Positions 5,860 through 45,361 of a DNA stretch of 64,000 bases are shown one piece after another. The position numbers and the translations under genes are program-made. The DNA lies in assembly GCA_036491115.1 (NCBI GenBank), contig DASXCQ010000089.1, positions 12,858 through 76,857 on the forward strand. The letters run 5' to 3'. The first letter of the stretch is position 1. The number at the start of each line of letters is the position of its first letter. A model generated the notes under the pieces. That model did not search any database, was not told where the DNA came from, and worked only from the letters and a program-made list of their open reading frames with translations. This DNA comes from Pseudonocardiaceae bacterium (GTDB lineage: Bacteria > Actinomycetota > Actinomycetes > Mycobacteriales > Pseudonocardiaceae).

Positions 5860-5911
5860 ACACTGAACTTCCTCTCCAGATCAGCCTCAATGCAGAGCAA
5901 GGAGCCCTCTC

Positions 5912-6907: not shown

Positions 6908-6914
6908 CCGCCTC

Positions 6915-6947: not shown

Positions 6948-7041
6948 TCGGCATCCTCACCATCGCCGCGGAGGCGAAGCGCTGGCCAAGGAGCTGGCGG
7001 CGCTGGTGACCCCGACCGCGGGAACCGCCCCTACAGCCGGA

Positions 7042-7527: not shown

Positions 7528-7608
7528 TCCCACCTCCCACCGGTTGCAATCTACCATCGGTTGGGCCAGGCTACTGCTTGTGAAATGCAACCACCTATGG
7601 AGGCCGTG

Positions 7609-8163: not shown

Positions 8164-8275
8164 GAACTCGCTGATAGGCCCCTGTGGACTTCCGGCACCG
8201 GGCGTAGTTCGGCCCGCGGCACGCGTTGAACGGTGTACAGGCCCATTCCATCCCTGCCGGAAGGAACCGAACGAC

Positions 8276-8779: not shown

Positions 8780-8786
8780 CGTCGCG

Positions 8787-10220
8787 TCACCAACTGCCCT
8801 TGTGCTCCGGTACCAGGAACACCAGGGGCAGGCAGAGCAGGAGCAGGGCCGCGAACACGATGAACACGTACGCCTGGGCGGTGCCCGGATCCGCTGACCG
8901 CGCGATGACGGCCGTGGTGACGGACACCGCCGCGATCGACCCGGACTGCCGGAACATGCCGCGTAGTCCGGCGATCGCCGCCACCTGGTCGGGCGCGAGT
9001 TGCAGACTGGCGTTGTTGGACGCCGGAATGGACAGGCCCATGCCGCAGCCGGTGATGCCGGCGGCGATGGCCAGCCACAGGTACGGCGACACCTGCGGGG
9101 TGATGAACATCATCAGCAGCCCTGCCACGACGATGACGAACCCGAGGATCATCGGCAGCCGGTATCCGGTGCGGCGCAACGTCAACACAGCCAGTCCGGC
9201 GATACTGATCATGCCGACCGCGCGGGCGGTGAGCAGGGTGCCCGCACCCAGCGGCGCGATGTGGAACCGGTCCTCCGCGTAGAGCGGGACGAGTGCCGCG
9301 AAGCCGATCGCGCCCGCGCCGGACATCACGTTGATCAGGTTCATCACGCCGAAACCCTTGCCGCGCAACAGCCGGTAGGGCACGAACGGTGCGTCGTCGT
9401 ACTTCGAGTGCCGGACGAACAACACCATCAGCAGCAGCGCGACGAGCTCGCAGCCGATGAACACCGGGCTGTACAGCGGGATCTGACCGCTGCCCAGGTA
9501 GGTGATGCCGAACATGGCGGCCAGGATCAGCCCGCCGAGCAGCGCGATACCGCGCAGGTCGATCCGGCTGCGCACCCGGCGCGAGTTGCCCGGCACGAAC
9601 TTCGCGGCCAGCAGGATCAGCACGATGCCGATCGGCACGTTCACCAGGAAGATGCCGCGCCACGACCAGGTCGCGACGAACACGCCGCCGATGATCGGGC
9701 CGACGATGCCGCCGATCGGGAAGATGCTGGTGAACATGCCCAGCGCGCGGTCGCGGTCGCGGCCGAAGTGGTCGGACACGATGCCGGTGGCCGACGGCAT
9801 GAACGCGCCGCCGCCGATCGCCTGCACCGCGCGCAACGCCACCAGCACGTAGATGTTGGTGGCCAGGCCGCAGGCCAGCGACGCGACGGTGAACACGGCC
9901 GCCGAGATCAGGTACACGTTCTTGCGGCCGTACATGTCGCTGATCTTGCCGGCGAACGGCATGGCCAGGACCTGGCCGAGTGCGTAGATCGTGATCGTCC
10001 AGCCGCTCCAGTTGATGGCGGCGTGCAACTCGCCCTCGATGGCCGGCAGCGCGGTCGCCACAATGGTCTGGTCGACGGAGCTCATGAACAGGCCAAGCGA
10101 CACGATGGCGAAGATCAGCTTGCGGCGGGCCAACGGTTCGGCCGGCGCACTCGCGGGGTTCTCCCTCGGCGCGCCCGGCCTGACTCGCAGCGCACTGGCC
10201 GCGTTCTGGGCTTCGTCCAC
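8787..10220 (-). CDS. MFS transporter, DHA2 (EmrB/QacA-like) drug:H+ antiporter family
   Basis: Multiple TM helices. LAMPFAGKISDMYGRK (motif A-like). GTG start at 10220. The 667-aa version in the track overlaps the MarR gene antisense. Confidence 0.85.
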   Translation of the reverse strand: MDEAQNAASALRVRPGAPRENPASAPAEPLARRKLIFAIVSLGLFMSSVDQTIVATALPAIEGELHAAINWSGWTITIYALGQVLAMPFAGKISDMYGRKNVYLISAAVFTVASLACGLATNIYVLVALRAVQAIGGGAFMPSATGIVSDHFGRDRDRALGMFTSIFPIGGIVGPIIGGVFVATWSWRGIFLVNVPIGIVLILLAAKFVPGNSRRVRSRIDLRGIALLGGLILAAMFGITYLGSGQIPLYSPVFIGCELVALLLMVLFVRHSKYDDAPFVPYRLLRGKGFGVMNLINVMSGAGAIGFAALVPLYAEDRFHIAPLGAGTLLTARAVGMISIAGLAVLTLRRTGYRLPMILGFVIVVAGLLMMFITPQVSPYLWLAIAAGITGCGMGLSIPASNNASLQLAPDQVAAIAGLRGMFRQSGSIAAVSVTTAVIARSADPGTAQAYVFIVFAALLLLCLPLVFLVPEHKGSW

Positions 10221-10236
10221 GTTCTGTAATACTAGA

Positions 10237-10252
10237 TGCTTGCCAGCAAGCA
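10237..10252. promoter_or_regulatory. Perfect 7-2-7 inverted repeat TGCTTGC-CA-GCAAGCA in the MFS/MarR divergent intergenic region (candidate MarR operator)
   Basis: Read directly from the sequence. It sits 17 nt from the MFS start and 21 nt from the MarR ATG. Confidence 0.45.
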
Positions 10253-10272
10253 AGCAACTCGCCGGAGGTGTG

Positions 10273-10734
10273 ATGGACGTCGAACTCGTGGCGCGCCTGC
10301 GGGGTGTGATCAGCAGGCTCGCCCGGCAGCTCAACGCCTCCGCCACCGGCGAGGGCCTGACGCCGACCCAGTACTCGGTGCTCGGTCTGATCCGCTGGCG
10401 CGGCCCGCTCGGGCTGGCCGAACTGACCGAGCTGGAGGGCGTCAACCCCACGATGCTGTCGCGCATCGTGCGCAAACTGGACGAACTGGGCCTGATCCAG
10501 CGCCTGCCCGATCCCAACGACCTGCGGGCGGTCCGGGTGCGCATCACGCCCGCCGGTGACGAACTGCACGGCCGCATCCGCACCCTGCGCTCCGGCGTTC
10601 TCGCCGACTGGATCCAACGCCTCCCCCAGGACACCCAGGACACCCTGCTGGCCGCGGTCCCCGCCATGGAGGCGCTGGCCGACGTGGTCGGCCCGGCCGG
10701 CCGCCCGACCAGGTCGCCGAGCGCTCCCAACTGA
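10273..10734 (+). CDS. MarR-family transcriptional regulator
   Basis: LTPTQYSVLGLIRWRGPLGLAELTELEGVNPTMLSRIVRKLDELGLIQR. GGAGG SD before the ATG at 10273. Confidence 0.85.
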   Translation: MDVELVARLRGVISRLARQLNASATGEGLTPTQYSVLGLIRWRGPLGLAELTELEGVNPTMLSRIVRKLDELGLIQRLPDPNDLRAVRVRITPAGDELHGRIRTLRSGVLADWIQRLPQDTQDTLLAAVPAMEALADVVGPAGRPTRSPSAPN

Positions 10735-10811
10735 TTGCGGACCACCATCGGCCACGCCAGGTTCCTCCGCGCACCGCTTGCAGAGCGCAATCAGTTCGGG
10801 AGCTGCCATGA

Positions 10812-11020
10812 CACGCGCCACGAAGCTCGACCGCCGTCACAGCGGTGTGGCACGAGGGCCGGGTCTATCTCCACACCGGCGAGGGTGAGCAGAAGTACCT
10901 CAACCTGACGACCACCAGCACGTGCTCGTCCTGGTCGGCGACGGCCGGTGGGACGCCGGCATCGACGTCGCCGTGGAAGGCGTACGGCCCCGCCGAGGGT
11001 GACCCGTTCGGACAGACCGG
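10812..11020 (+). pseudogene. Remnant of a pyridoxamine-5'-phosphate-oxidase (PPOX/F420-type) family gene: N-terminally truncated and frameshifted
   Basis: The frame after the stop at 10809-10811 reads TAVTAVWHEGRVYLHTGEGEQKYLNL. The family pattern continues in another frame as HQHVLVLVGDGRWDAGIDVAVEG (stop at 11000-11002). No start codon or N-terminal third is present. Confidence 0.45.
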
Positions 11021-11482
11021 CTACGAGTTCTGGGCGGCCAGGACCGCGCGCACCCGGTCGCAGACCACCTCGACGTCGACCGGGTCCGGCTGCTCGCCCA
11101 GGCGGAACATCGCTGCTTGCAGGTCCGGCCCTCGGGTGCCGAACCGGTCCATGTCCGACCGGGTCACCGGCTGCACCACGAAATGGACATGGCCGGGCCG
11201 CCCCTTGGCATGCGACCACAGGCAGACGTAGACCTGCTCGGGCGTCATCACCTCGGTGACCGCAGCCGACACCCGGCGCAGCAGCGGACCCAGCTCGGCG
11301 GTCTCCCGCTCGTCCAGGTCGGCCACGTGCACCACGTGCCGGAACGGCTTGACGATGAGCGTCCCGGCGCCGAGCGGGCCGACCGTGTGCTCCACCAGCC
11401 AGTGTTCCGTCTCGCCCAGGCGACCGCCGGGCAGCGGGCGGGCGCCGCTGGTCAGGTCACAGGTCATGCACGCGGTCGTCAT
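11021..11482 (-). CDS. HIT-family protein (incomplete histidine triad GHVHFVV)
   Basis: WLVEHTVGPLGAGTLIVKPFRHV...RPGHVHFVVQP. Its ATG overlaps the upstream stop (ATGA at 11479-11482). Confidence 0.75.
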   Translation of the reverse strand: MTTACMTCDLTSGARPLPGGRLGETEHWLVEHTVGPLGAGTLIVKPFRHVVHVADLDERETAELGPLLRRVSAAVTEVMTPEQVYVCLWSHAKGRPGHVHFVVQPVTRSDMDRFGTRGPDLQAAMFRLGEQPDPVDVEVVCDRVRAVLAAQNS

Positions 11483-12315
11483 GCCAGCACCGCCGTTCCG
11501 GTGATGGACGGGCCCAGGCCGGGCACCGCCGCCGTCAGTGACACCTCGTCGCCATCGGCCGTGCCGGTCACCTCGACCGTCTCACCCGCGAACGTGGGCG
11601 CGAGCAGCCGGTAGTCGAAGGACGTGACCGCACGGTCCGGCCGGAATCGACGCGGGATCTCCAGCAACAGCAACGCCAGCAGCGGCCCGTGCACCACCAG
11701 ACCGGGATAGCCCTCGACCTGGGTGACGTACGCCTGGTCGTAGTGGATGCGGTGCGTGTTGTAGGTCAGCGCGCTGAACCGGAACAGGGTCATCTCGTCC
11801 GGGACGACCGAGAACCGCCAGTCGCCATCGGGCGGTTCACCGGTCGGCCGGCGCAGCGCCCTGGTCTGGCCCGGCGCCTGCGACCGGTAGACCACGTCCT
11901 GCTCCTCCACGGCCGCGACCGTCGCGCCCACCCGGAACTCGTGGCGCACCGTGACGAACGCCATTTCCCCGCTGCGACCCCGTTTTACCGTCACTGAGTC
12001 CAGTGTGGACGTTCGAGTGACCGGCTCGCCGATCGGCAGCGGTGCGTGGAGACGCAGCCGGCCGCCGGCGATCATCCTGCGGCGCTGCGGAATCGGCGGC
12101 AGGAACCGGCCATCGGCCGGATGGCCGTCCGGCCCCAGTTCGGACCGACTCGGGTGCTCGAGAAATCCGAGCCAGTGCCACAACGGCGGCAGCCCGGCAC
12201 ACTCCGGCTGGTCCAACAGCGCGGTCAACGCCGACACCGACCACCGGCTGATCCGGTCGGTCACCGTGTCCGGAGCCGGGGACCAGCCGGCGACGGCGTC
12301 GCCGAGACCGGTCAT
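11479..12315 (-). CDS. MaoC/HTD2-like hot-dog-fold (R)-hydratase family protein
   Basis: FSALTYNTHRIHYDQAYVTQVEGYPGLVVHGPLL. 278 aa. ATGA overlap with the upstream methyltransferase at 12312-12315. Confidence 0.8.
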   Translation of the reverse strand: MTGLGDAVAGWSPAPDTVTDRISRWSVSALTALLDQPECAGLPPLWHWLGFLEHPSRSELGPDGHPADGRFLPPIPQRRRMIAGGRLRLHAPLPIGEPVTRTSTLDSVTVKRGRSGEMAFVTVRHEFRVGATVAAVEEQDVVYRSQAPGQTRALRRPTGEPPDGDWRFSVVPDEMTLFRFSALTYNTHRIHYDQAYVTQVEGYPGLVVHGPLLALLLLEIPRRFRPDRAVTSFDYRLLAPTFAGETVEVTGTADGDEVSLTAAVPGLGPSITGTAVLA

Positions 12316-12983
12316 GCGCGCCGGAATTCGGCCCGCCAGCGGAGTGACGCACCGTCGATCTGGACGATCTCGACGGCGGTCAGACCGTCCGTGGCGAACG
12401 CGTCGACCTCCGCCCTGGTCAGCGGCCACGGCGGACCCTGCGGCGGCGGTGCGTCGTCCGGCTGGACGACCGCGATCAGCAGGAGCGTGCCGCCCGGCGC
12501 CACCAGGTCCTGTACGGCACGGGTGACCTGCCCGCGCAGCGTGACCGGCAGCGCCTGAGTGGTGTAGCTCTCCACCACCAGGTCGAACGACCGCTCCCAC
12601 CGGTCCGGCGGGTTCAGCACGTCCGCGACCTGGTAATGGACCGGCGAATCGGGGTAGCGGGACCGGACGACCTCGACCGCCGACTCGGCGATGTCGAACC
12701 CCGTCGTGGCGAAGCCGAGCCGGCCGAGGAACTCCGAGTCCCGGCCCAGACCACACCCCACGACGACCGCACGCCTGCCATCGCCGCGCAGCTGCCGCTG
12801 TGCGGCCCACTCGACGATCAACGTGTTCGCGTCCGTGAAGTCCCACGGCATCGACACGTCGCCCTGCCGGCCCGCCGAGTACAGGCGCTCGAACCAGGCC
12901 GTCGGCTCGCCCTGCGCGATCGCCTCGGCCGCGAACACGTCGGCCCGCCGCTCCCAGTCCGGTGAGTCCCTCACGGCGTTCAC
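12312..12983 (-). CDS. Class I SAM-dependent methyltransferase
   Basis: SAM motif I RAVVVGCGLGRDSEFL and post-I FDIAESAV. GTG at 12983 with SD GGGAGGG. GTGA overlap with the upstream stop. Confidence 0.8.
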   Translation of the reverse strand: MNAVRDSPDWERRADVFAAEAIAQGEPTAWFERLYSAGRQGDVSMPWDFTDANTLIVEWAAQRQLRGDGRRAVVVGCGLGRDSEFLGRLGFATTGFDIAESAVEVVRSRYPDSPVHYQVADVLNPPDRWERSFDLVVESYTTQALPVTLRGQVTRAVQDLVAPGGTLLLIAVVQPDDAPPPQGPPWPLTRAEVDAFATDGLTAVEIVQIDGASLRWRAEFRRA

Positions 12984-14230
12984 GCCCTCCCTCGGGCCAG
13001 GCCCAGGATGCGGTCGAGCACCCGGCCGCCGCTGGCCCGCAGCCCGTTGTGCTCGTACTCGTTGGTCACCCAGTAGCGCATGGTCGGGATCATCCTGGCC
13101 GTGACCAGGCCGAGGGCACAGTCCACATAGGCGTCCTCGGCGTACATCGCGGCGGCGCAGGGAACCTCGCACTCCCGGAGCGCGGTGTCGTCGTACAGGC
13201 GGGGCCACTCGTGCGCGGCGAGCAGTTCGGTGGCCTCGCGCAGCGGTGCGAAACCGCCGCAGTCCTCCAGCATCCACGGGAAGGCGTGCTCACCGGTGAG
13301 CAGCGTCGGGTCGGCGGCGTAGTCGTCCGGCCGGATGCGCTCCGCCGACCAGTTGGTCACGATGCCGTCGGCGTAGCACGCCTCCTGCAGCACGAAGTAG
13401 ATCGGGTTGCGGGTCGGGAACGGCATCGCCGCCTCGGCGTCGTGGGCGAAGGCGTAGGACAGCGGGTCGCGTTCCAGCAGGTGGTGCAGCCGTTCCGCGC
13501 CGTCGCTCATGCCCAGCACGTTGCCGATCTGACGGAACCGGCGCGACGTCAGGCGGTCACCGCCCGGCAGCGTGATCCGGCCGTCGCCGGCCAGTTCGGT
13601 GATCCGCGCCACGCGGTCCCGGTCGCCGGGGTAGCGGAGGTAGTAGCGGCGGTTGCGCTCCAGCATCGTCGGGTAGGTAGCGCGGTAGACGTCGTCGATG
13701 TGCACGCCCACCGGCGGCACTCCCCCGGTGAACAGCGCCTCGCGCAGGCCATCGGGCGCGATGGACAGGTAGGTCGCCACGCAGAACCCGCCGAACGACT
13801 GGCCCAGCACCGACCACCGGTCCACACCCAACTCGCGGCGGATCCACTCGGCGTCGCGCACGATCGAGTCCGCGCGAAAGTGCTTCAGGTAGTCGGCCTG
13901 CTGTTGCGGCGACATCCCCGGCAGTGCTTCGACCGGCGTGGACCGCCCGGTGCCGCGCTGGTCGAGCATCAGCACCCGGAAGTCGGTCAGCGCGCGGCGC
14001 AACCAGCCGGGCCCGAGCGGATCACCGGTCGGCCGGGGCGCCTCGAAACCCGGACCGCCGGTGAGGAACACCAGGTACGGCCGGTCGGTGCCGTCCGGAT
14101 CGGCGACCTCGCGGGCGAACACCGTGATGCGCTCGCCGGCCGGTCGCGCGTGATCCAGCGGCACCGCGAACTCGTGCTCGGTCAGGACAAGGCCGGGAAC
14201 CCGCGTGGTCAGCGACACGCCAGCGATCAT
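12980..14230 (-). CDS. Prolyl aminopeptidase-like alpha/beta hydrolase
   Basis: FLTGGPGFE, MLDQRGTGRS and the nucleophile elbow LGQSFGG. ATG at 14230 (416 aa). The upstream part of the 490-aa ORF is Arg-rich shadow. Confidence 0.85.
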   Translation of the reverse strand: MIAGVSLTTRVPGLVLTEHEFAVPLDHARPAGERITVFAREVADPDGTDRPYLVFLTGGPGFEAPRPTGDPLGPGWLRRALTDFRVLMLDQRGTGRSTPVEALPGMSPQQQADYLKHFRADSIVRDAEWIRRELGVDRWSVLGQSFGGFCVATYLSIAPDGLREALFTGGVPPVGVHIDDVYRATYPTMLERNRRYYLRYPGDRDRVARITELAGDGRITLPGGDRLTSRRFRQIGNVLGMSDGAERLHHLLERDPLSYAFAHDAEAAMPFPTRNPIYFVLQEACYADGIVTNWSAERIRPDDYAADPTLLTGEHAFPWMLEDCGGFAPLREATELLAAHEWPRLYDDTALRECEVPCAAAMYAEDAYVDCALGLVTARMIPTMRYWVTNEYEHNGLRASGGRVLDRILGLARGRA

Positions 14231-14282
14231 GCCACGACCCGGTGCCGACACACGCCCGAAATGCGCCGCCGCCGCCGGGCCG

Positions 14283-14639
14283 TCACCGGCCGGACCACGG
14301 AGCCGAGCCGAGCGGGAACGCCTCGTCCTCGGCCACCCGGAGCGCATCGCCGAGGCGCAGGCCGAACGCCGCGAACACCGTGATGAGCTGGTGCACGCTG
14401 GCCTCCCGGCGAGCCAGTTCCAGCCGGCACACCACGGACGGCGACAGCTCAAGGCGCATCGCGAGGTCGCTCAGGTACCAGCCCCGCTCGACTCTCGCGT
14501 CCCGCGCCTGGCGGCCGATCGAGGCCAACATCGCGGTGATCGTGGGATCGTCCACCGGTCGCTCGAACACATCCACCGTCCGTTCCGATTTCTTCGTCGG
14601 ACACGTCCGGCCGTCCTGGCCGGACGCATCCGCAGTCAT
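14283..14639 (-). CDS. XRE-family HTH transcriptional regulator (start could be the GTG at 14702)
   Basis: ITAMLASIGRQARDARVERGWYLSDLAMRLELSPSVVCRLELARREASVHQLITVFAAFG. Confidence 0.65.
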   Translation of the reverse strand: MTADASGQDGRTCPTKKSERTVDVFERPVDDPTITAMLASIGRQARDARVERGWYLSDLAMRLELSPSVVCRLELARREASVHQLITVFAAFGLRLGDALRVAEDEAFPLGSAPWSGR

Positions 14640-19727: not shown

Positions 19728-20129
19728 TCAGGCGGCCGACGAGACCACCGGCGTGTGGTGCACCTCCAGCTGGTGCACGACCCGCTCGGTGCTCAACTCG
19801 TGAGCCGTGAGGTCCACCAGGCTGACCAGAGCCACGGCCAGCGCGTCGATGAAGACCACTGTGGTCAACGCCGATCCGGTGAACACCAGTGCCGCGATCA
19901 GCGCCCAGACGCTGACCACCGCGAGTACGCCGTGACCGAACCTGGCACCGGTCCGCTTGGTCAGCACCGCTGCCAGTGCGGCGAGCAGGGCCAGCCCGGT
20001 GAAGACACCGAATCCGACCCAACCGGCCGCCGTGGCCGAGAAGGCCACGGCCGCCACGGCGAGAAAACCGCCAGCGACAACACCGAGAACATCAACGCCG
20101 AAGCGAGTACTCAGCGACATCGAAAACAC
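19728..20129 (-). CDS. Small integral membrane protein (about 4 TM helices), function unknown
   Basis: Hydrophobic helices throughout. Strong SD GGAGGTG lies 6 nt upstream of the ATG at 20129. Confidence 0.55.
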   Translation of the reverse strand: MFSMSLSTRFGVDVLGVVAGGFLAVAAVAFSATAAGWVGFGVFTGLALLAALAAVLTKRTGARFGHGVLAVVSVWALIAALVFTGSALTTVVFIDALAVALVSLVDLTAHELSTERVVHQLEVHHTPVVSSAA

Positions 20130-20370: not shown

Positions 20371-20505
20371 CCTTTGCGGCAGACGAGATGCCTGATACGG
20401 TCGGCATGATCGAATGATCAGTTCTGGAAGCAGGGATTCATTCATTGTCCTTGTCGTGCCCGACAATCGATGAGTCGACCCCTGCCAGCAGGGAGTGGAG
20501 ATTCC

Positions 20506-20895
20506 GTGAGAGGTAATTCAAGATTGCGTTTCCTGACCATGTTGGCCGGATTGTTCGTAGCCTTGCTCGCGGTGGCCGGCATGTCCAGCGTCGCAGGTGC
20601 GACGGTCATGCCACTGAACGCGTCCGGCTGCAACCAACATTCGTGCATCGGCGTCACGGGCTCGGCGTCGGGTTATACCGCGACATCAAGTGCCCCCGGT
20701 ACCGCCTCGCCATACATCTTGTCCATTTCCGGGCCAGGCTGCCCCCTCCGATCCAGCCCCATTGAAACCCTGCCCCTCAAGGGCCTTTCCTGCAACGGAC
20801 ACGGCGCCGGCAAGGTGTGCGCCTCCGTCGAGATCCGCAACTCCAGCACAGGCGCGTTCGAGGCCGCCGGCCAGGCGTGCGAGACGATTTCCTGA
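20506..20895 (+). CDS. Small secreted cysteine-rich protein, function unknown
   Basis: GTG at 20506 after GGAGTGGAG. Signal peptide RGNSRLRFLTMLAGLFVALLAVAGMSSVAGA. About 100-aa mature part with 6 Cys. Codons are atypical for this genome (AAT, TCA, AGA, TTG). Confidence 0.55.
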   Translation: MRGNSRLRFLTMLAGLFVALLAVAGMSSVAGATVMPLNASGCNQHSCIGVTGSASGYTATSSAPGTASPYILSISGPGCPLRSSPIETLPLKGLSCNGHGAGKVCASVEIRNSSTGAFEAAGQACETIS

Positions 20896-28426: not shown

Positions 28427-29821
28427 ATGACCGGGGTCGGCGATCTGATCGCTGAGCGCTATCGGGTGGTCGCCCAGGTCGGCAGCGGGTCGATGGGTGT
28501 GGTGTGGCGGGCGACGGACGAGCTGCTGCACCGCGACGTCGCCGTCAAGGAGCTGCTGTTACAGCCGGGGATCACCGAGGAACAGGCCGACGAGGCGAGA
28601 CGCCGCACCATGCGCGAGGGCCGGATCACCGCGCGGCTGCAACACCCGAACGCGATCACCGTCTACGACGTGGCCGAACACGACGGCAGGCCCTGCCTGG
28701 TCATGCAGTACGTGCCCTCGCAGAGCCTGGCCGACCGGTTGGCCGAGCGCCGCTGGCTGCCGCCCGCCGACGTGGCGACCATCGGCCGCGCGCTGGCGGG
28801 CGCGCTGGCCGCCGCCCACGCGGCCGGGATCGTGCACCGGGACGTCAAGCCGGGCAACGTGTTGCTCACCGAGGACGGCACCGCGATGCTGACCGACTTC
28901 GGCATCTCGCGGGCCGTGGGCGACGGCACGGTGACCGCGACCGGCGTGCTCGCCGGCACCCCCGCGTACCTGGCGCCCGAGGTGGTGCAGGGGCAGGACG
29001 CCGACTTCCGCAGTGACGTGTTCTCCCTCGGCGCCACCCTGTACGCCGCTGTCGAGGGCGTGCCGCCGTTCGGCCTGTCGGACAACCCGATCGCGCTGCT
29101 GCACAAGATCGCCACCGAGAACATCGCGCCGCCGAAGCAGGCCGGCGACCTGACCAAGGCGCTCACCTGGATGCTCAAGCGCGACCCGGCCGAGCGGCCG
29201 ACGATGGGCCAGACGGTGGCGGCGCTGTCCATCGCGGGCGGCGAGTTCGTACTCCCGCCGCGCCCATCACCCCGGTCCGGGCGGACCGGGGACAAGCGGT
29301 CGCGGGCGATGCGCTCGGGTATCATCGCGCTGATCGTCATCGCGGTGGCCATCCTGCTCACCACACTGCCGCATCGCGGCGGTACGCGGCCGGGCGCCCG
29401 GACGGGGGCGACGACGACTGGTCAGTCGACGACCGTTGAGCAGCCCACGACGACCACTCCTGCTCCCACTCCCACGACCACCGCCACGGCCGCCGCTTCG
29501 CCCTCCGGTCAGCTCGCGACGACGATCGAGGACTACTACAAGCTGGTGCCCGGCGACCTGAACACGGCGTGGAACCGGATGACGGCGGACTACCAGCGCA
29601 ATCACGCCGGCGGCCGGTCCGGCTACCAGTCGTTCTGGTCGGCGGTCGACAGCGTCTCGGTCGCCGACGTGACGGCCCGGCCGCCGGATGCGGTGACCGC
29701 GACCATCAGCTATCACTACGCGGACCACACCGACGTCGAGCGGACCAGTTTCGGACTGGTCCGGCAGGCCGGACAATGGAAGATCGCCAGTTCCGACGTC
29801 TTGAGTCATCATCGAGAGTGA
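28427..29821 (+). CDS. Transmembrane Ser/Thr protein kinase with Thr/Pro-rich linker and extracytoplasmic domain
   Basis: GSGSMGVVW, VAVKEL, HRDVKPGNVLL, DFGISR and GTPAYLAPE. A TM segment IIALIVIAVAILL is present. Confidence 0.9.
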   Translation: MTGVGDLIAERYRVVAQVGSGSMGVVWRATDELLHRDVAVKELLLQPGITEEQADEARRRTMREGRITARLQHPNAITVYDVAEHDGRPCLVMQYVPSQSLADRLAERRWLPPADVATIGRALAGALAAAHAAGIVHRDVKPGNVLLTEDGTAMLTDFGISRAVGDGTVTATGVLAGTPAYLAPEVVQGQDADFRSDVFSLGATLYAAVEGVPPFGLSDNPIALLHKIATENIAPPKQAGDLTKALTWMLKRDPAERPTMGQTVAALSIAGGEFVLPPRPSPRSGRTGDKRSRAMRSGIIALIVIAVAILLTTLPHRGGTRPGARTGATTTGQSTTVEQPTTTTPAPTPTTTATAAASPSGQLATTIEDYYKLVPGDLNTAWNRMTADYQRNHAGGRSGYQSFWSAVDSVSVADVTARPPDAVTATISYHYADHTDVERTSFGLVRQAGQWKIASSDVLSHHRE

Positions 29822-29847
29822 CATCGGCAGCAGGAAACAGGAGCGCC

Positions 29848-31335
29848 ATGACCGCCACCCACGTTGACGTGCTCGTCGTCGGTGCCGGCCTGTCCGGCAT
29901 CGGCGCCGGTTACCGCATGCAGACCCGGACGCCCGGCAAGACATACGCGATCCTCGAGGCACGGCACGCCATCGGCGGCACGTGGGACCTGTTCCGCTAC
30001 CCAGGGGTGCGGTCGGACTCGGACATGTTCACGCTCAGCTACCCGTTCCGGCCGTGGACCAACCCGAAGTCGATCGCGGACGGCCCGGCGATCGTGAACT
30101 ACATCCGGTCGACGGCGGCGAAGTACCGGATCGAGCGGCACATCCGGTTCGGTCACCGGGTGGTGCGGGCGTCGTGGTCGACGCAGGACGCGCGCTGGAC
30201 GGTGGACGCCGAGCACGACGGTTCGACGGTGACGTTCACGTGCTCGTTCCTGTACCTGTGCAGCGGCTACTACAGCTACACCGGCGGGCATGTGGTCGAG
30301 TTCCCTGGTCAGTCGGACTTCGCCGGGCCCGTGGTGCACCCGCAGCAGTGGCCGGCGGATCTGGACTACGCCGGCAAGCGCGTGGTGATCATCGGTAGTG
30401 GCGCGACGGCGGTGACGCTGGTGCCGGCGATGGCCGACGCGGGTGCCGCCCATGTGACGATGTTGCAGCGCTCGCCCAGTTACGTGGTGGCGCGGCCGAC
30501 GGCCGACCCGATGGCCGACCGGTTGCGCTCGCTGCTGCCCGGTCATCTGGCGCATCGGGCGATTCGCGGGCGCAACGTGGTGATGTCGACGTTGTTCTAT
30601 CAGATGTTCCGGCGGTTGCCGGAGCGGTCGGCAACGATGTTGATGGCCGGTGTGGAGAAGGCCGTTGAGGGTGCGATTGCCGTTGATCCGCATTTCAAGC
30701 CGAAGTACAAGCCGTGGGACCAGCGGATGTGCCTGGTGCCTGATGGGGACCTGTTCCGGGTGATCCGGGAGCGCAAGGCCGATGTGGTGACGGATCGGAT
30801 CTCGCGGTTCACCGCGTCGGGTATCGAGTTGGTGTCCGGTGCCACGTTGCCTGCTGATGTCATCGTTACCGCTACCGGGTTGCGGATGGTGGCGTTCGGG
30901 GACATCGAGATGTCCGTGGACGGTGAGGTGGTCAAGGCTCATGACACTACCGTCTACAAGGGAATGATGTTCTCCGGGATTCCCAATTTGGCCTGGTGTG
31001 TTGGTTATGTGAACAACTCGTGGACGTTGCGGGCCGATCTTACTACTCAGTATGTTTGTCGGTTGATCAATCATATGGCTCGGCACGGGTATGACTACTG
31101 CGTGCCTGCCGTGTCGGAGTCCGACGCGGATGATGGTCGGCCGTTGTTGGATCTCACTTCTGGGTATATTCAGCGGGCTGCCGCTGTCATGCCGCATCAG
31201 GGGACTCGGCAGCCTTGGCGGCACCGGCAGAACTATCTGGTTGATCTTGCCACCATGCGGTTGCGGCGGGTCAATGACGGGGCGATGCGGTTTGGCCGTT
31301 CCGGGATTCGGGCCGGGGATCGGACTGCTGCCTGA
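29848..31335 (+). CDS. Flavin-containing / Baeyer-Villiger-type monooxygenase (EthA-like)
   Basis: VLVVGAGLSGIGAGY, FRYPGVRSDSDMF (BVMO-type fingerprint region) and VVIIGSGATAV. Confidence 0.85.
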   Translation: MTATHVDVLVVGAGLSGIGAGYRMQTRTPGKTYAILEARHAIGGTWDLFRYPGVRSDSDMFTLSYPFRPWTNPKSIADGPAIVNYIRSTAAKYRIERHIRFGHRVVRASWSTQDARWTVDAEHDGSTVTFTCSFLYLCSGYYSYTGGHVVEFPGQSDFAGPVVHPQQWPADLDYAGKRVVIIGSGATAVTLVPAMADAGAAHVTMLQRSPSYVVARPTADPMADRLRSLLPGHLAHRAIRGRNVVMSTLFYQMFRRLPERSATMLMAGVEKAVEGAIAVDPHFKPKYKPWDQRMCLVPDGDLFRVIRERKADVVTDRISRFTASGIELVSGATLPADVIVTATGLRMVAFGDIEMSVDGEVVKAHDTTVYKGMMFSGIPNLAWCVGYVNNSWTLRADLTTQYVCRLINHMARHGYDYCVPAVSESDADDGRPLLDLTSGYIQRAAAVMPHQGTRQPWRHRQNYLVDLATMRLRRVNDGAMRFGRSGIRAGDRTAA

Positions 31336-39940: not shown

Positions 39941-40025
39941 GGTGGCACCTGCTCCCAGCCGGGGCAACGGTGTCGGTCCGGTGCGGCATGGTCCGAGTCG
40001 GATGCCGCACGGACGAGGAGGTCGG

Positions 40026-41177
40026 GTGCTCACGACGCTCGCGGTGGCGAACTACCGGTCGCTGCGCGACCTGGCGCTGCCGCTGCGCCGGTTGACCCTG
40101 GTCACCGGGGCCAACGGCAGCGGCAAGTCCAGCCTGTACCGGTCGCTGCGGCTGTTGGCCGACGCCTCGCGCAACGGCGCGGTGGCGGCGCTGGCCAGGG
40201 AGGGTGGCCTGCCCTCGACGTTGTGGGCCGGTCCGGAGCGGCCGGTGCGGGACGGCAGGCGGGCGCAGGGCACGGTGCGGAAGACGCCGGTGGCGCTGCG
40301 GCTGGGGTTCGCCGGGGACGAGTTCGGCTACGCGGTGGACTTCGGCCTGCCGGTGCCGAGTGGTTCGTTGTTCAACCTGGATCCGGAGATCAAGCGCGAG
40401 TGCCTGTGGGCGGGCCCGGTGCTGCGGCCGGTCACCCTGCTGGTCGACCGGGCGGCCGGGATCGTGCGGCTACAGGGGTCGGAGGGCCATCACTCGATCG
40501 GGTTGACCGACAGCGTGCTGAGTGAAATGGCCGATCCGGGTGCGGCGCCGGAGCTGATGCTGGTGCGGGAACGGATTCGATCGTGGCGGTTTTATGATCA
40601 GTTTCGGACCGATGCCGGGGCGCCTGCTCGGCGGCGGCAGGTGGGGACGCGGACGCCGGTGTTGGGCCACGACGGCGGTGACCTGGCGGCCGCGATCCAG
40701 ACGATCGTCGAGATCGGCGACTCGGAGGTGTTGGACGAGGCCGTGGGCAACGCCTTTCCCGGCTGCGGGGTGAGGGTGGTGTCGCGTGACGGGTGGTTGG
40801 AGTTGTTGTTCCGGCAGCACGGGTTGCTGCGGCCGCTCGGGGTGGCGGAGTTGTCGGACGGGACCTTGCGGTACCTGTTGCTGGTGGCGGCGTTGCTGAC
40901 ACCTCGGCCGCCGGAGTTGTTGGTGTTGAACGAGCCGGAGACCAGTCTGCATCCGGATCTGTTGGTGCCGTTGGCGTCGTTGGTCGCGACGGCGGCGACG
41001 CGGGCTCAGCTGGTGGTGGTGTCGCACGCGGTGCCGTTGGTCAGGGCGATGGCCGCGGTGGCCGAGGAGTTGGGGGTGGAGGTGAGCACGGTGGAACTGG
41101 TCAAGGAAGGTGGAGCCACCTACATCGCCGGCCAGAAACTCCTCGACGCACCATCCTGGCACTGGCCGAAACGCTGA
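40026..41177 (+). CDS. ABC/SMC-type AAA ATPase (AAA_21-like, stand-alone)
   Basis: Walker A GANGSGKSSL, signature-like LSDGTLRYL, Walker B LLVLNEPETSLH and VVVSH. GTG at 40026 after GAGGAGG. Confidence 0.8.
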   Translation: MLTTLAVANYRSLRDLALPLRRLTLVTGANGSGKSSLYRSLRLLADASRNGAVAALAREGGLPSTLWAGPERPVRDGRRAQGTVRKTPVALRLGFAGDEFGYAVDFGLPVPSGSLFNLDPEIKRECLWAGPVLRPVTLLVDRAAGIVRLQGSEGHHSIGLTDSVLSEMADPGAAPELMLVRERIRSWRFYDQFRTDAGAPARRRQVGTRTPVLGHDGGDLAAAIQTIVEIGDSEVLDEAVGNAFPGCGVRVVSRDGWLELLFRQHGLLRPLGVAELSDGTLRYLLLVAALLTPRPPELLVLNEPETSLHPDLLVPLASLVATAATRAQLVVVSHAVPLVRAMAAVAEELGVEVSTVELVKEGGATYIAGQKLLDAPSWHWPKR

Positions 41178-41195: not shown

Positions 41196-41930
41196 TTACG
41201 GCATCGCCGACGGGCGAACGACCTCAATACACGTGCCGCCCGCGATCCCGACCTCGTGCAGCGCACGTGTGTCGCTGTTCCCGCTCCTGTTGTTCAGGGC
41301 CCAGTTAGTGCCGATGTCGACGAGCAATCGGCCAGATCCCTTGATCTTGATGAGCCATGACAGGCCATAGGTGTAAGGCGGCACGTGACCTGAGATCGAG
41401 GCGTAGATCGCGTCGAGGAGCTCCGACACGGTACTGGAGTCGCTGACGATGAACTGCATGGTCGATCCGGCACCCAGGAAATGCGACAGGTCAACCGATG
41501 CCACCGATAGCGCCACGCCCTCTTGGGCCTTGTCCTTGGCCTGCTGCACCACCTTCTCGGCCGCGTCGACGGTGAGGTGTAGATCGCTCACCGCTTCGGC
41601 CGCCGACGCGGCCGCCGCGGTCTGCGCCACTTCGACGCCACGACGTACGTTCTGGCGCATCGCCCTGACGAACACGTCCACATCCACGTTGTCGGAGAAG
41701 TCCTTGGGCGCATACCAGACGTAGGGCTTCTTCCAGAGGACAAGGAAGAACACGGCCAGGACGACGCAGGGAAATATTACCGAGAATATCGCGAACATCG
41801 TCTGGATCCAGGTAGTTGATTTGACCGTGACCACACCGGTCGTCGCCTCACTGACGCTGATGAACAGCGAGACGACCCATAGCGGATTCGTGGTACGCAA
41901 ACTCGCCTTCGGCTCGTCGGTGTGGGCCAT
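41196..41930 (-). CDS. 2TM membrane protein with Ala-rich helical linker and about 90-aa C-terminal soluble domain; unknown family
   Basis: TM1 PLWVVSLFISVSEATTGVVTV and TM2 WIQTMFAIFSVIFPCVVLAVFFLVLW, then KKPY. C-terminus MQFIVSDSSTVSELLDAIYASISGHVPPYTYGLSWLIKIKG...GGTCIEVVRP. TAA stop. Low local GC. Confidence 0.6.
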   Translation of the reverse strand: MAHTDEPKASLRTTNPLWVVSLFISVSEATTGVVTVKSTTWIQTMFAIFSVIFPCVVLAVFFLVLWKKPYVWYAPKDFSDNVDVDVFVRAMRQNVRRGVEVAQTAAAASAAEAVSDLHLTVDAAEKVVQQAKDKAQEGVALSVASVDLSHFLGAGSTMQFIVSDSSTVSELLDAIYASISGHVPPYTYGLSWLIKIKGSGRLLVDIGTNWALNNRSGNSDTRALHEVGIAGGTCIEVVRPSAMP

Positions 41931-42056
41931 CGTCGAGATCTCTCCGAACGGATGTGTGCGGCTGTGTGTGACATCGGCTACCTCTATGCCAGGTTACGCA
42001 CGCAATAGAGCCTGTTGCCGGACAGTTGGTGGACAACCCTGGCACCCGAAACGTCG

Positions 42057-42656
42057 TCACGACGGGTAGAGAGCCGCCGCCGCACTTCGGACGCAGAGCC
42101 CGTGTATGCACACCAGGAACGGATCGGCGTCCGGGATCAGGATCAAGGCATCGTGATGGGTCAGAGCGGTGGAGAGCTTCCCGGTCTCGACCCAGTCGAG
42201 CCGCATATAGCTGGCGTTGCTCGTCGGAATCAGCTCCGCACCGGTCGTCAACCGAACCCGTAACGTGATCATCCTGGTGAGTTCGCTGATCTGGGTGCCG
42301 AGCGGATCATCGACCACGTCGGTGACGTCGCTGACCAGGCTGACCTGACCACGAAACATGCCTTGCTCCAGAAACTGCCCGATGCCCAGCTTCCTGGCCA
42401 TGACAGCCTCCGCCATGAGCGACGGCAACATCATGCCCGCTCGCTGGACACCGAAGTGAAAGTTGGACCGGCCGTGAGCGACCAACGTGTCGGCGAGGAC
42501 GAGTGGCGCTCGTTGGGTGATCGTACTGAGCACGCCGGGATGCCTGGGGTTGTGTCTGGGCGTCCGGACCCCCATCAACAAGCGGCCCGGCATGTCGGAT
42601 CGCTCGATCAACAAGGAGACCACGAAGGTTGGCGAGCGGCCACTTGGTTCCTCCAT
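42057..42656 (-). CDS. Degenerate Nudix-fold-like protein (paralogue of the C-terminal half of the upstream ORF)
   Basis: FVVSLLIERSDMPGRLLMGVRTPRHNPRHPGVLSTITQRA ... AEAVMARKLGIGQF. ATG at 42656 with AGGAGGA SD. One-nt overlap (TGATG) with the upstream stop. Confidence 0.55.
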   Translation of the reverse strand: MEEPSGRSPTFVVSLLIERSDMPGRLLMGVRTPRHNPRHPGVLSTITQRAPLVLADTLVAHGRSNFHFGVQRAGMMLPSLMAEAVMARKLGIGQFLEQGMFRGQVSLVSDVTDVVDDPLGTQISELTRMITLRVRLTTGAELIPTSNASYMRLDWVETGKLSTALTHHDALILIPDADPFLVCIHGLCVRSAAAALYPS

Positions 42657-43915
42657 CAGCTGTGTCCTCCTGTGTCATCGACCGGACGATTGAACACATG
42701 CTCTGTCAGCCAGGTGGATCGAGCGCGCAGCAGACGATTGAGTGGGAGCGGTTCCGGGGTGGTGGCATAGAGTCTGTCTCGGTCGACGCGCACCATTCCG
42801 GTCGGATTCCACGACTCCAGGTCACGTAGTTCGTCCTGGTCCCCTGACCGGCGAAGCGAGCAGTCGAAGATCGCGAAGCACAGTTGCTCGTTGGCCGTCT
42901 CATGGTCCAGCACCTGGAACCCACGGAAGGCGAGGCGATCCGGGCCGATGTGCAGACCGCACGACGAATAAAGCTCCCGCTGTGCCGCGTTGCGGAATGC
43001 ATCCAACGGGACTGTGAACGGATTCGGCTTGCCGGCCATGATCCATGTCTTCTCGAAGGCGTCGTCATCGTTCTGCTTGTCACCGAGGTCGAGGTTGAGT
43101 GCGACGGCGAGGTCCTCCTCCAGGACACGGGCACTGAGAAGGGACAGGACGCCGAAATCGTTGTGATCGGTCAGCAGCGTCCGTTGCTTCAGATAGGCGA
43201 TCGGCCCTCGCGGCGTGGTGGCACGGATGGCCACGATCGCCACCGGCATCAGGAAGTTGTCGTCATGGGACGAGATTCCGTAGGGCAGGAACCTGGTTAT
43301 TCGCGGGCCTGGCCAGCTCGTGGTCCCGTCCGACGGCACGGCCAGAACCGCACTCTGGTCAAGCATCGCGCAGTGGATCTCCCGGATGAGCAGCGGCTTG
43401 CGATCCTGGAGCATCGCGTCGAAGGTGGCCAACAGTGTCGACGGCGGAGTCGGGACCTGCCACATGACCGTCTGCTCCCGGCCGAGCGGCCCTGGCAGGA
43501 CGGTGAGACCGACCATGTGGACGCCACCGTCGTTGCTGGTCAGCCGAACGAGGCAGTCGAGAAACAACTCCGATATCGCGAAGGACGCATAGGGTCCGGC
43601 CGATGGCCCGTCCGGAGAGCCCGACAATATGTTGCGGAGGGCGATCAGCGAGGCGTTCCAGCGCCGGATCAACTTGCCGTGTAGGGCGTCGGGCGCGTGC
43701 GCCAGGACGATCTGGGACCTCGGAGTCGAGTACGTGATCGGCGCGAGAACCGCGGCGGTGTCGTTGGTCGCACCCGACGTGACCCGTCGAATCGCATCGA
43801 TCAGCGGTTGTGGTGCGATCCCCAGCACGTCGATCCGGGTCGAATTGAGCAGAAGGTAGGCCAGCTCTGATTGGATGTCCGCGGCGTCACATAAGATTGG
43901 ATGGTTGTCGTCCAA
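42656..43915 (-). CDS. 419-aa protein: unknown N-terminal domain plus C-terminal degenerate Nudix-fold-like domain
   Basis: TTG start at 43915 after GAGGA. VAIVAIRATTPRGPIAYLKQRTLLTDHNDFGVLSLLSARV ... DAFRNAAQRELYSSCGLHI (Nudix-box-like, with the EE pair replaced by SS). Confidence 0.55.
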   Translation of the reverse strand: MDDNHPILCDAADIQSELAYLLLNSTRIDVLGIAPQPLIDAIRRVTSGATNDTAAVLAPITYSTPRSQIVLAHAPDALHGKLIRRWNASLIALRNILSGSPDGPSAGPYASFAISELFLDCLVRLTSNDGGVHMVGLTVLPGPLGREQTVMWQVPTPPSTLLATFDAMLQDRKPLLIREIHCAMLDQSAVLAVPSDGTTSWPGPRITRFLPYGISSHDDNFLMPVAIVAIRATTPRGPIAYLKQRTLLTDHNDFGVLSLLSARVLEEDLAVALNLDLGDKQNDDDAFEKTWIMAGKPNPFTVPLDAFRNAAQRELYSSCGLHIGPDRLAFRGFQVLDHETANEQLCFAIFDCSLRRSGDQDELRDLESWNPTGMVRVDRDRLYATTPEPLPLNRLLRARSTWLTEHVFNRPVDDTGGHS

Positions 43916-43959
43916 CGTGTCCTCGCACAGGGTCGCAGAGCACCGAGCCTCGCCCGACC

Positions 43960-44646
43960 TCAGCCGGACTTCTGGGGGCGGAGCACCCCGAGTCTCGCTG
44001 CGTCACACACCACCTGTGAGGCGAAGTCGGCGAGTTCAGGGCAGTACTCACGGACCCCATCGATGCGCCGCTGTACCTGGTCCGCCCGAACGTGGTGCGC
44101 CCGCCACGACGAGAACTCCAGGTTGGAGTAGTTGAGAAAGACCGGAAGCAACACGTCGAGGGCCATGACGAACCGACCCTCCGGAGACAGCAGTTCTTCG
44201 TATTCTTTCCATTTGTCGAATATGTCCTTGACTTCGACACTGTTACGATGGTTGGCAACCATCTGGCGCATGGCGGTGACTTCGTTCTTGTGCCTGGAGT
44301 TGATCTGTGGCGAATAGACGAACGTGTCACCGACGAAAACCTCGGGTATGTCGTGCACCGCCGCGAGGGTGACTGCCGCGTTGACGTCGAGCGTCTCGCT
44401 GGCGAACCGCGCGAAGATGAGGACAGCGACGGAGAGGTGCCAGGAGTGTTCCGCGGTCGTCTCGGCCCTCGGTCCCGTCGCGATGGGGTTCTGGCGGTTC
44501 ACCTGTTTGAGGCGGTCGATCTCCAGGAGGAAGGAGTGCAACTCGGAAAGGTCGGCATCCTGCGGCCGAACTCGTTGGCTCCCGGCGTCCTCGACAGTGT
44601 GTCCCGCAAGCATATAGATACCGTCCTTGCGTCGGTTTGGCATCAT
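43960..44646 (-). CDS. HD-domain phosphohydrolase, YfbR-like 5'-nucleotidase family (HD_3)
   Basis: AETTAEHSWHLSVAVL, AAVHDIPEVFVGD and FVMALDVLL (H...HD...D metal ligands). Confidence 0.8.
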   Translation of the reverse strand: MMPNRRKDGIYMLAGHTVEDAGSQRVRPQDADLSELHSFLLEIDRLKQVNRQNPIATGPRAETTAEHSWHLSVAVLIFARFASETLDVNAAVTLAAVHDIPEVFVGDTFVYSPQINSRHKNEVTAMRQMVANHRNSVEVKDIFDKWKEYEELLSPEGRFVMALDVLLPVFLNYSNLEFSSWRAHHVRADQVQRRIDGVREYCPELADFASQVVCDAARLGVLRPQKSG

Positions 44647-45318
44647 CTGACACCGTTGACCGTGGTTCCGTGTTGGGCAATGATCGTTGGGTGGCGGTCA
44701 GAGTAGCTGCCGCCATCGTCCCCGAATACATCGGCGAGCACGAGCCGGAACCGAGACCTTGTCCTACATTTGTCCATGAATTGTCCACCGGATGTCCAGC
44801 GCGGTTCAGGCGTTGCCGATGACGCAAGCGAGCACATTCGCTGGGCGATGCCGGACCCGGCGCGGACGTTCATGTATTGAGGATCCCCGGTGTGCGTTGG
44901 CCGTGGACCGGCCAAACGGGTGAATACCCTTTCGAAGCCACCGTGACCGCGCGCAACGTAGCGGGCGTCGCAATGCGTTGTACACAATGCGCTACGAGGC
45001 CGTCGAAGGTTCGAGATTCCGGCGCCACGATGTGGTGAGTCTTTGAGGCGCGGGACCGGTCTCTGCGAGCACATTCGGCACACCTGCGGAATTGGATGCG
45101 CTAATCCTGTGCAATGCCCGACGTGTCACTCGCCCAGCGACCGACTCCCACGCACATCCAGCCAACATCACCAGGCGTGATGTCCATACGATGGCTCACC
45201 CAACCCACCGTGCCCGGCAACAAGCCACCCCACGACCAGTTCCACTGCACACCCACCACATCCAACCCAACACCACCGGGCGTGTCATTCGTCCAGCGGG
45301 CGACTCAAGGCAAACCGG

Positions 45319-45353
45319 GCGGACGGCGCAACCGAAGTGGCCGCGCCGTCCGC
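45319..45353 (-). terminator. Stem-loop just downstream of the CMD-family gene
   Basis: Perfect 11-bp stem GCGGACGGCGC / GCGCCGTCCGC with a 13-nt loop, 8 nt beyond the stop codon at 45362-45364. Confidence 0.5.
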
Positions 45354-45361
45354 GGACCCGG

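Follow-up and report, generated by a model that had tools for sequence, protein, structure and literature searches.

Introduction

In CBASS, Pycsar, Thoeris and the ancillary systems of type III CRISPR, a ligand sensor is coupled to swappable effectors, whether TIR, protease, transmembrane (TM) or phosphatase. Chp, a membrane-localised CARF-HAD nucleotide phosphatase, is a sensor-controlled immune effector (PMC12715507). Here we describe a cassette of four co-directional genes in a 64,000-nucleotide stretch of contig DASXCQ010000089.1 (hereafter the window), from the metagenome-assembled genome of a soil actinobacterium of the family Pseudonocardiaceae. The cassette (locus tags VGG05_23165-23175) encodes an HD_3-family phosphohydrolase (HD), a two-domain protein with a probably Nudix-derived C-terminal domain (F419), a Nudix-fold protein (F199) and a membrane-anchored protein (F2TM). 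Its proposed logic is the one that these signalling defences share, and Chp offers a direct precedent for the combination of membrane and phosphatase functions. In contrast to them, the cassette and its flanks contain no CD-NTase, cyclase, TIR or Cas10 by Pfam and PADLOC, and the cassette has no SAVED, CARF, STING, SLOG or Macro sensor, the candidate sensor being Nudix-derived; no description of a Nudix-derived sensor in systems of this kind was found in the searchable literature. The locus had been singled out by a sequence-only reading of the window, made without database searches, as a possible conflict or defence system. We estimate a probability of about 0.5 that the cassette acts in biological conflict as an as yet unnamed system, with defence against phages or abortive infection as its most likely role; it would have been acquired horizontally by the Pseudonocardiaceae genome.

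A second group of described systems comes close to the relatives of the cassette. Kaur, Burroughs, Iyer & Aravind (2020; PMC7159879), who introduced the term EAD, described NTP-dependent ternary and related conflict systems of multicellular bacteria and took the repeated displacement of effector domains on a conserved module as one of several criteria for genuine conflict systems; the abstract of the same paper deals with a variety of protein modules that were taken up in an inactive state and serve as effectors. F419 relatives carry EAD7 or TCAD9 domains and adjoin AAA+ and STAND NTPases, and their actinobacterial bias and catalytically degenerate enzyme modules match themes of that work, whereas the cassette and its flanks lack MoxR, vWA, VMAP, GTPase and STAND/iSTAND components. 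The paper mentions Nudix a single time, as a possible ADPr/NAD-processing effector domain, and describes neither the F419 family nor the cassette; no description of either was found in other conflict-system papers of the Aravind group or elsewhere in the searchable literature.

A third comparison is with animals. The NUDT9H domain of the human TRPM2 channel has a modified Nudix box and binds ADP-ribose (ADPR) without significant hydrolysis, channel activity is abolished when the domain is removed, and the NUDT9H domain of sea-anemone nvTRPM2 keeps a canonical box (PMC7555694). The F419 family shows the same split between canonical and degenerate boxes. With TRPM2 NUDT9H and Chp as precedents, a sensor/effector logic for the cassette is plausible.

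Results

Conservation and distribution of the cassette genes

Related loci were collected from contig look-ups, a GTDB scan and a metagenome scan, and were annotated with local HMMs. In 27 distinct loci the gene directly downstream of F419 is F199, and the two often overlap by 4 nt; the gene set recurs in more than 25 independent contigs from different actinobacterial families, down to 23-40% identity and with order and start/stop overlap kept. The sequence-only reading had named a lack of synteny in other genomes as an outcome that would count against it, and the cassette genes proved to be strongly syntenic elsewhere. Eighteen loci also encode a small membrane protein: F2TM in three cases, a non-homologous 1-TM protein in 14 and a different TM protein in the remaining one. 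The HD_3 gene occurs in about two thirds of loci, being present in 13 and missing from 7 with sufficient upstream sequence. The conserved core is formed by the membrane protein, F419 and F199, with HD as a frequent accessory that is not universal. Three loci have F199 without F419 in the 1.5-1.9 kb upstream (L015, positions 1552-2424; L033, 1741-3015; L037, 1900-2508), indicating that the pairing is not absolutely obligatory; the L033 match sits inside an unusually long open reading frame (ORF). One locus carries a second, divergent F199 paralogue (L006, 10621-11247, minus strand).

The family is rare. An F199 scan of 185,579 GTDB species returned eight genomes, all of them Actinomycetota and from at least five families, while the genome scan with F419 patterns gave no match. 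In the source databases the relatives are named 'hypothetical protein' or 'TIR domain-containing protein'. PADLOC-DB v2.0.0 contains nothing that matches F419, F199 or F2TM at E<=1. The statement of the sequence-only reading that the combination corresponds to no named system agrees with these searches, three of the four proteins being without a PADLOC v2, Pfam or NCBIfam match, and with the searchable literature.

These loci also bear on the possibility that the cassette is a coincidental cluster of unrelated hypothetical, or decaying horizontally acquired, genes with no joint function. Such a cluster would be in keeping with the three proteins that lack database annotation and with one related locus in which F419 is broken and F199 absent. 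Against it stand the recurrence in more than 25 contigs with conserved order and overlap, and the window ORFs, which are intact and of coding-type composition; every cassette gene has full-length homologues on independent contigs (23-74% identity) and shows the codon-position pattern GC3>GC1>GC2 (G+C content at codon positions 3, 1 and 2), so that the genes are real and not chance ORFs. Because synteny is maintained across loci, chance clustering is excluded, and we give this explanation a very small probability.

In the locus with the broken gene (L003, 313-1815), the close F419 homologue P0006 (500 aa) can be aligned only as far as about residue 309, beyond which its sequence is unrelated; F199 is missing downstream, and the next gene encodes an aldo-keto reductase. 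L003 thus holds the cassette in a decayed or rearranged form.

Fusions of the F419 module

A profile search of 1.84e9 representatives gave 97 clusters of F419 relatives, 61 of which contain the full two-domain module as detected with a 40-sequence HMM. N-terminal extensions of at least 120 aa are present on about 23 of the 97. Where these could be named by Pfam (TCAD9 and EAD7 being Pfam family names), the module is fused to TIR_2 (P0058), Peptidase_C14 caspase (P0055), TCAD9/APH-like kinase (P0056, P0069, P0083, P0098 and P0106), EAD7 (P0111), Trypsin_2 (P0112 and P0118) and HD-CE (P0120) domains. The TIR domain of P0058 matches the PADLOC models of TIR-SAVED (CBASS) and pAgo-TIR effectors, and both the TIR::F419 and the caspase::F419 genes are continuous ORFs in contig DNA.

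Two of the fusions have informative surroundings. L019 (ENA NODE_4148, 1-6202) encodes, in order, an integrase, a 126-aa ORF, a multi-TM protein (239 aa) as another kind of membrane partner, caspase::F419 (646 aa), an F199 homologue (229 aa) and an excisionase-like HTH_17 protein; here the F419/F199 pair, with its fused protease, is cargo of an integrative element. In L021 (ENA KERN20-1 scaffold_729, 1-14423), a 1121-aa TCAD9-kinase::F419 protein is encoded in a co-directional locus of at least seven genes, together with a Sigma54_activat AAA+ protein, an ATP-grasp_3 protein and an nSTAND1-pentapeptide NTPase. HMM annotation detected no F199 partner in L021, and the locus resembles a far more extensive conflict system employing the F419 module. 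Since the F419 module is fused to varied immune-type domains and the gene set is syntenic, the conflict reading is strengthened.

F199 has a Nudix fold

Searches with F199 gave no match in Pfam, NCBIfam, PADLOC or PHROGs. Its AlphaFold2 (AF2) model, built with 21 homologues, reached a pLDDT of 91.8 and a pTM of 0.89, and Foldseek against the PDB returned 104 matches at E<=1e-3, those listed being Nudix-fold proteins. Among the matches listed, GDP-mannose mannosyl hydrolase (GDPMH, 1rya) was the best at 4e-6, with NudI and MutT1 also present, while the highest TM score, 0.67, was that of isopentenyl diphosphate (IPP) isomerase (3hyq). Nearly all the named BFVD matches are likewise Nudix proteins. 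The model confirms a predicted Nudix alpha/beta/alpha fold, in agreement with the Nudix-like assignment that had been made from the sequence alone.

The helix expected to carry the REUxEE motif reads A-R-K-L-G-I-G in F199 (R88-K89-L-G) and has no catalytic glutamates. The invariant residues are R31, R38-H39, S44-T45-T47, R88-K89, D117, W155, C183 and C188.

GDPMH and IPP isomerase are Nudix-fold enzymes with non-canonical chemistry. They are central to the main rival explanation, in which the cassette is a small-molecule metabolic module and F199 and F419 are non-canonical Nudix enzymes acting on a nucleoside diphosphate (NDP)-sugar or modified nucleotide, either by attack at the sugar C1 as in GDPMH or by Cys/His catalysis as in IPP isomerase. 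HD_3 would then dephosphorylate the resulting nucleoside monophosphate (NMP), the membrane protein would anchor or export, and the module would serve to sanitise the nucleotide pool, to turn over precursors of the cell envelope or to metabolise nucleoside analogues. The identity of the top Foldseek match and of the match with the highest TM score favours this explanation, as does the invariance of H39, C183 and C188. Repeated fusion to TIR, caspase, trypsin, EAD7 and TCAD9 domains would be unexpected for a metabolic enzyme.

F419 carries a degenerate, probably Nudix-derived C-terminal domain

F419 has no Pfam, PADLOC, NCBIfam or PHROG match. It can be divided into an N-domain (residues ~1-200) and a C-domain (~205-419), the latter with the degenerate box R313-E-L-Y-S-S-C-G-L321, in which SS replaces both EE positions of REUxEExGU. 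Both box glutamates are lost in 55 of the 61 modules, and the remaining six, all distant fusions, keep a canonical R-E-[ILV]-x-E-E-[LI]-G-[LI] box. The Pfam NUDIX model gives weak scores for five distant relatives (17.6-21.6 bits; cut-off 21.1), and a profile of the C-domain found only six matches in the PDB, all of them Nudix proteins aligned at the box (best 2b06, E 0.005). The canonical box in distant members, the weak NUDIX scores and the Nudix-only PDB matches together support a Nudix origin of the C-domain, as judged from sequence profiles.

The AF2 model of F419, built from five sequences, was poor (pLDDT 50.6), and F419 was therefore analysed by sequence profiles. The Nudix-like C-domain put forward by the sequence-only reading thus finds support in profile evidence but not in a confident model. 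PDB profile searches with F419 (8- and 40-sequence profiles), its N-domain, F199 and F2TM gave nothing meaningful. When the F419 model was submitted to Foldseek, all matches had E>=0.04, were split between Nudix-fold and PLD-fold proteins and included MUTYH; the PLD-fold matches, which fell on the N-terminal half and were non-significant, were NucT (probability 0.82), Nuc, TrmBL2 and BJ-TSA-9. Neither a conserved HxK(x)4D motif nor an invariant catalytic residue is seen in the N-domain, and it is possibly a PLD-like domain without the HKD motif, which we treat as a weak lead.

The Nudix superfamily (PF00293) includes non-hydrolytic or non-canonical members such as TRPM2 NUDT9H, GDPMH and IPP isomerase. 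F199 shares its fold, and F419 has a C-domain that aligns with PDB Nudix proteins at the box, but both fall below every Pfam and NCBIfam threshold and have the box glutamates replaced (SS in F419; RK..IG in F199). Neither matches PF00293 at E<=1, and neither contains the Nudix box GX5EX7REUXEEXGU with its metal-binding glutamates. F419 has in addition an N-domain of ~200 aa, and the two occur as an adjacent pair, nearly always together with a membrane protein. Conserved basic residues are numerous in the degenerate F419/F199 modules. Of the earlier description of these modules as probably non-catalytic, the loss of the canonical glutamates stands, while loss of catalysis is deduced solely from it; both proteins are best called putatively non-catalytic.

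F199 had also been described as a paralogue of F419. In hhalign comparisons the same 'LLxxR...GVLSxxSxR' segment was aligned each time, with E values of 0.19, 0.033 and 0.099, never significant; the paralogy is hypothetical.

The features of F419 can also be read as those of a conflict system with the roles reversed. The F419/F199 pair would then be the effector, a decoy or trap for an invader molecule or modified DNA, and HD and the membrane protein would regulate it. The Nudix-like C-domain of MutY, which reads 8-oxoG, illustrates how such a module could work, and the weak Foldseek matches of F419 to MUTYH and to PLD-fold nucleases or DNA binders (NucT, Nuc, TrmBL2) point the same way. EAD7::F419 and TCAD9::F419 place F419 where adaptor-tethered effectors normally sit, and the explanation would fit the theme of inactive modules taken over from cellular subsystems, found in part of the Kaur et al. 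paper (PMC7159879). It appears improbable to us: the N-terminal TIR, caspase and trypsin domains look like effector plus sensor and not effector plus effector, the Foldseek matches come from a model of pLDDT 50.6 and are not significant, and the N-domain lacks both the HxK(x)4D motif and any invariant catalytic residue. We propose F419 instead as a sensor or regulatory module.

The HD phosphohydrolase

The HD protein matches Pfam HD_3 (PF13023) at 8.1e-28 (97.8 bits against a cut-off of 22.5, profile positions 1-152 of 165) and the YfbR-like Pfam profile at 6.9e-8, which bears out the HD phosphohydrolase call of the sequence-only reading. Its PDB matches are 3kh1 (1e-24), human HDDC2 (2.5e-10), yeast YGL101W (4e-6), the OxsA-like 1xx7 (2.5e-5) and YfbR (6e-4). 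The motif residues H67, H98-D99, E102 and D164 are intact, align with those of 3kh1 and HDDC2 and are conserved among the cassette homologues; the protein is predicted from these alignments to be an active, metal-dependent enzyme of the 5'-(deoxy)nucleotidase type. Although it belongs to the family, the protein is no orthologue of E. coli YfbR, scoring 22.4 bits on the NCBIfam equivalog NF003009 against a cut-off of 122. PADLOC gave only a spurious ZorA match (0.052) and no dGTPase match, and the match to the PHROG 'dATP triphosphohydrolase' was weak (1e-6) and limited to residues 45-111.

Among the YfbR/HDDC2/YGK1 5'-(deoxy)nucleotidases, the cassette HD is thus a clear HD_3 member that keeps the H...HD...E...D motif; its closest solved relative, 3kh1, is an uncharacterised structural-genomics protein. 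Unlike the housekeeping nucleotidases, for which such a context is not described, the cassette-type HD is operon-linked to F419/F199 in 13 loci. It resembles the dGTPase/SAMHD1-like depletion defences in being a predicted nucleotide-acting HD phosphohydrolase and a possible effector, but it comes from another HD family, of the HD_3 monophosphatase and not the triphosphohydrolase type.

Membrane partners and accessory genes

F2TM has one strong hydrophobic segment (~39-71) and a weaker one (~16-37) that exceeds the threshold only in homologues, so that of the two TM helices assigned earlier one is well supported and the other passes in relatives only. Behind these segments come an Ala-rich helical linker and, at the C-terminus, a conserved globular domain of ~100 aa. 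The protein is rare, with only six clusters in 5.8e9 proteins, and has no Pfam, NCBIfam, PADLOC or PDB match; tblastn against 50,697 phage records gave no match. Residues 14-147 match phrog_26238, of unknown function, at 2e-10, which may be driven by TM and Ala-rich composition. F2TM is linked to the cassette in the window, in L009 (same order) and in L001 (divergent, upstream). In 14 loci of a sister branch, a ~128-aa 1-TM protein is encoded between HD and F419; homology of this protein with F2TM was ruled out (hhalign E 0.43). We propose F2TM as a membrane effector or anchor.

Accessory genes occur sporadically in the sister branch, namely canonical NUDIX (L005, L006 and L010), NTP_transferase (L005 and L017), and NDK with GT2 (L007), and a UDPGP-like gene occurs in L015. 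These nucleotide-related genes might generate or degrade a ligand. The recurrence of nucleotide and NDP-sugar enzymes is equally what a metabolic module would show, and the same applies to an HD protein that is a genuine HD_3 enzyme with HDDC2, YfbR and the OxsA-like protein as relatives, and to the metabolic nature of the flanking genes. However, the accessory enzymes are not conserved between loci and the membrane protein is, and the replacement of the membrane partner by non-homologous proteins is typical of effector turnover and not of a pathway. The extremely patchy distribution and foreign composition of the cassette also speak against a metabolic role, which we consider unlikely.

Layout and composition of the locus

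The cassette spans 41196-44646 (Table 1). All four ORFs are intact and co-directional, with coordinates and strand exactly as the sequence-only reading had given them, and the details it had quoted are exact: a TAA stop at 41196-41198, a TTA codon at 43892-43894, a TTG start at 43913-43915 after GAGGA, and translational coupling of F419 to F199 by a TGATG stop/start overlap (ATGA) at 42654-42658 with AGGAGGA upstream. The absence of integrase, cyclase and nuclease from the cassette was likewise borne out by Pfam and PADLOC. A terminator-like site was searched for in the F199-F2TM spacer and none was found.

Table 1. Coordinates of the cassette genes and of other features of the window
Feature	Coordinates	Strand	Description
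HD	43960..44646	-	228 aa; first cassette gene; HD_3-family, YfbR/HDDC2-like phosphohydrolase
F419	42656..43915	-	419 aa; two-domain, C-domain probably Nudix-derived; TTG start
F199	42057..42656	-	199 aa; predicted Nudix-fold protein
F199-F2TM spacer	41931..42056	.	126 nt; sole sizeable intergenic gap within the cassette (ORF coordinates)
F2TM	41196..41930	-	244 aa; membrane-anchored protein
Non-coding stretch upstream of HD	44647..45361	.	~0.7 kb; low GC (~0.61), from composition and ORF scan
AAA_21 ATPase	40002..41177	+	ABC-type; convergent, with 18 nt between it and the cassette end
588-aa ORF	29569..31335	+	GC3 0.77; partial flavin monooxygenase match
Small ORF	19728..20129	-	multi-TM
Small ORF	20470..20895	+	signal-peptide-like

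The G+C content of the cassette is 62.2%, against 70.3% for the remaining window, and the cassette is the lowest-G+C 3.45-kb segment of the window, about 3 sd under the mean (window mean 0.699, sd 0.023). The counts by which its composition had first been contrasted, 28/60 for 41761-41820 and 44/60 for 40021-40080, are exact, but the 47% of the former is local only. GC3 is 0.79-0.81 in all four cassette genes and 0.88-0.95 in flanking genes; since the four share this lowered value, their composition is foreign to the genome.

The non-coding stretch upstream of HD has no coding-signature ORF, no tRNA, no Rfam family and no minus-strand sigma-70-like site, in accordance with the gene-free stretch recognised earlier. 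It is presumed to be the promoter/regulatory region of the cassette and the right edge of the compositional island. No Rfam family was found in the window as a whole. A phage or plasmid origin of the cassette was considered and rejected, no relatives being found in IMG/VR, in phage records (F2TM) or in plasmids (F199).

Neighbouring genes and other low-GC patches

The gene that converges on the end of the cassette encodes an ABC-type AAA_21 ATPase whose PADLOC matches are HEC-01A (1.6e-40) and AriA (1.4e-23), as well as AbiLi, MADS3 and GajA-like models. As judged from where its Pfam match starts, the true start probably lies near 40002, the listed 499-aa ORF being too long upstream. Its GC3, 0.89, is host-like, and no partner nuclease was found near it. 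The ATPase was rejected as a cassette member on account of its opposite strand, its host-like GC3 and its absence from all related loci, and it may be a separate, incomplete defence gene.

Two other patches of lower GC lie in the window. One, at 30-32 kb (GC ~0.65), includes the 588-aa ORF, in which a Baeyer-Villiger/flavin monooxygenase match is limited to residues ~90-345 and which is possibly a decayed or fused gene. The other, at 20-21 kb (GC 0.625), includes the two small ORFs listed in Table 1 and appears unrelated to the cassette.

Discussion

The cassette would work like a sensor-plus-swappable-effector immune module and is a member of no named system. In the mechanism that we propose, F419 and the coupled F199 would form a hetero-oligomer that binds a nucleotide-type ligand, either an NDP-X compound or a nucleotide derivative, without hydrolysing it. 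A ligand of the NDP-X type is suggested by the Nudix ancestry of the proteins together with the accessory NTP_transferase, NUDIX and NDK genes. The ligand would appear or disappear upon infection, and its binding would switch the associated effectors on. The membrane-anchored protein might then damage the membrane or serve as a scaffold, and the HD_3 phosphohydrolase might either draw down the (d)NMP pools or end the response by removing the ligand. Elsewhere among its relatives, the F419 module is joined by fusion to TIR, caspase, trypsin-like protease, HD-CE or TCAD9 kinase-like domains. Tentatively, and at somewhat less than even odds, we suggest that F419 and F199 represent a previously unrecognised class of nucleotide-ligand immune sensor, with a role like that of SAVED, CARF or STING, which would have been combined in evolution with TIR, caspase, trypsin-like, HD and membrane effectors. 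The window would hold a 'split' version, with HD nucleotidase and membrane protein as separate effectors.

Several observations weigh against a conflict function. Neither a tRNA nor an integrase is present in the window, a search for flanking direct or inverted repeats gave nothing convincing, and no relatives were found in IMG/VR, in phages (F2TM, 50,697 records) or in plasmids (F199, 72,556). The cassette of the window and most of the related loci are flanked by metabolic or housekeeping genes, which differ between loci, and not by known defence genes, and the sole defence-like neighbour in the window is the orphan AAA_21 ATPase of host-like composition. None of the four proteins is recognisable by Pfam, PADLOC or NCBIfam as a signal-generating enzyme, nuclease or NTPase. 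His and Cys residues are invariant in F199, and Nudix-fold enzymes with non-canonical chemistry are among its best structural matches; no pocket can be made out in the poor F419 model, and the hypothetical paralogy and heteromerisation of F419 and F199 are statistically unsupported (hhalign E 0.03-0.2). Mobile or defence-like neighbours are occasional: in L011 an integrase lies upstream and a CHAT-domain protein is encoded downstream, and L014 has HipA. The defence-like interpretation of the sequence-only reading is therefore favoured by the fusions and the integrase-borne copy but not by the neighbourhoods, which are mostly metabolic or housekeeping, a kind of context that the reading itself had named as counting against it.

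If the proposed function is correct, the few ligand sensors known from prokaryotic immunity would be joined by a further fold, that of paired Nudix proteins without hydrolase residues, and the ADPR-binding NUDT9H of the TRPM2 channel would be its animal counterpart. Because TIR, caspase, protease, phosphohydrolase and membrane outputs all occur with the F419 module in nature, the ligand of the module could be searched for through whichever read-out is easiest. If the cassette is instead a metabolic module, it would reveal a new non-canonical Nudix chemistry. F419, F199 and F2TM define three protein families that have no Pfam, NCBIfam or PADLOC model and are therefore invisible to defence-annotation pipelines. 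The defence repertoires of actinobacteria, to which the cassette would belong, are relevant to the engineering of Streptomyces strains and to the biology of actinophages.

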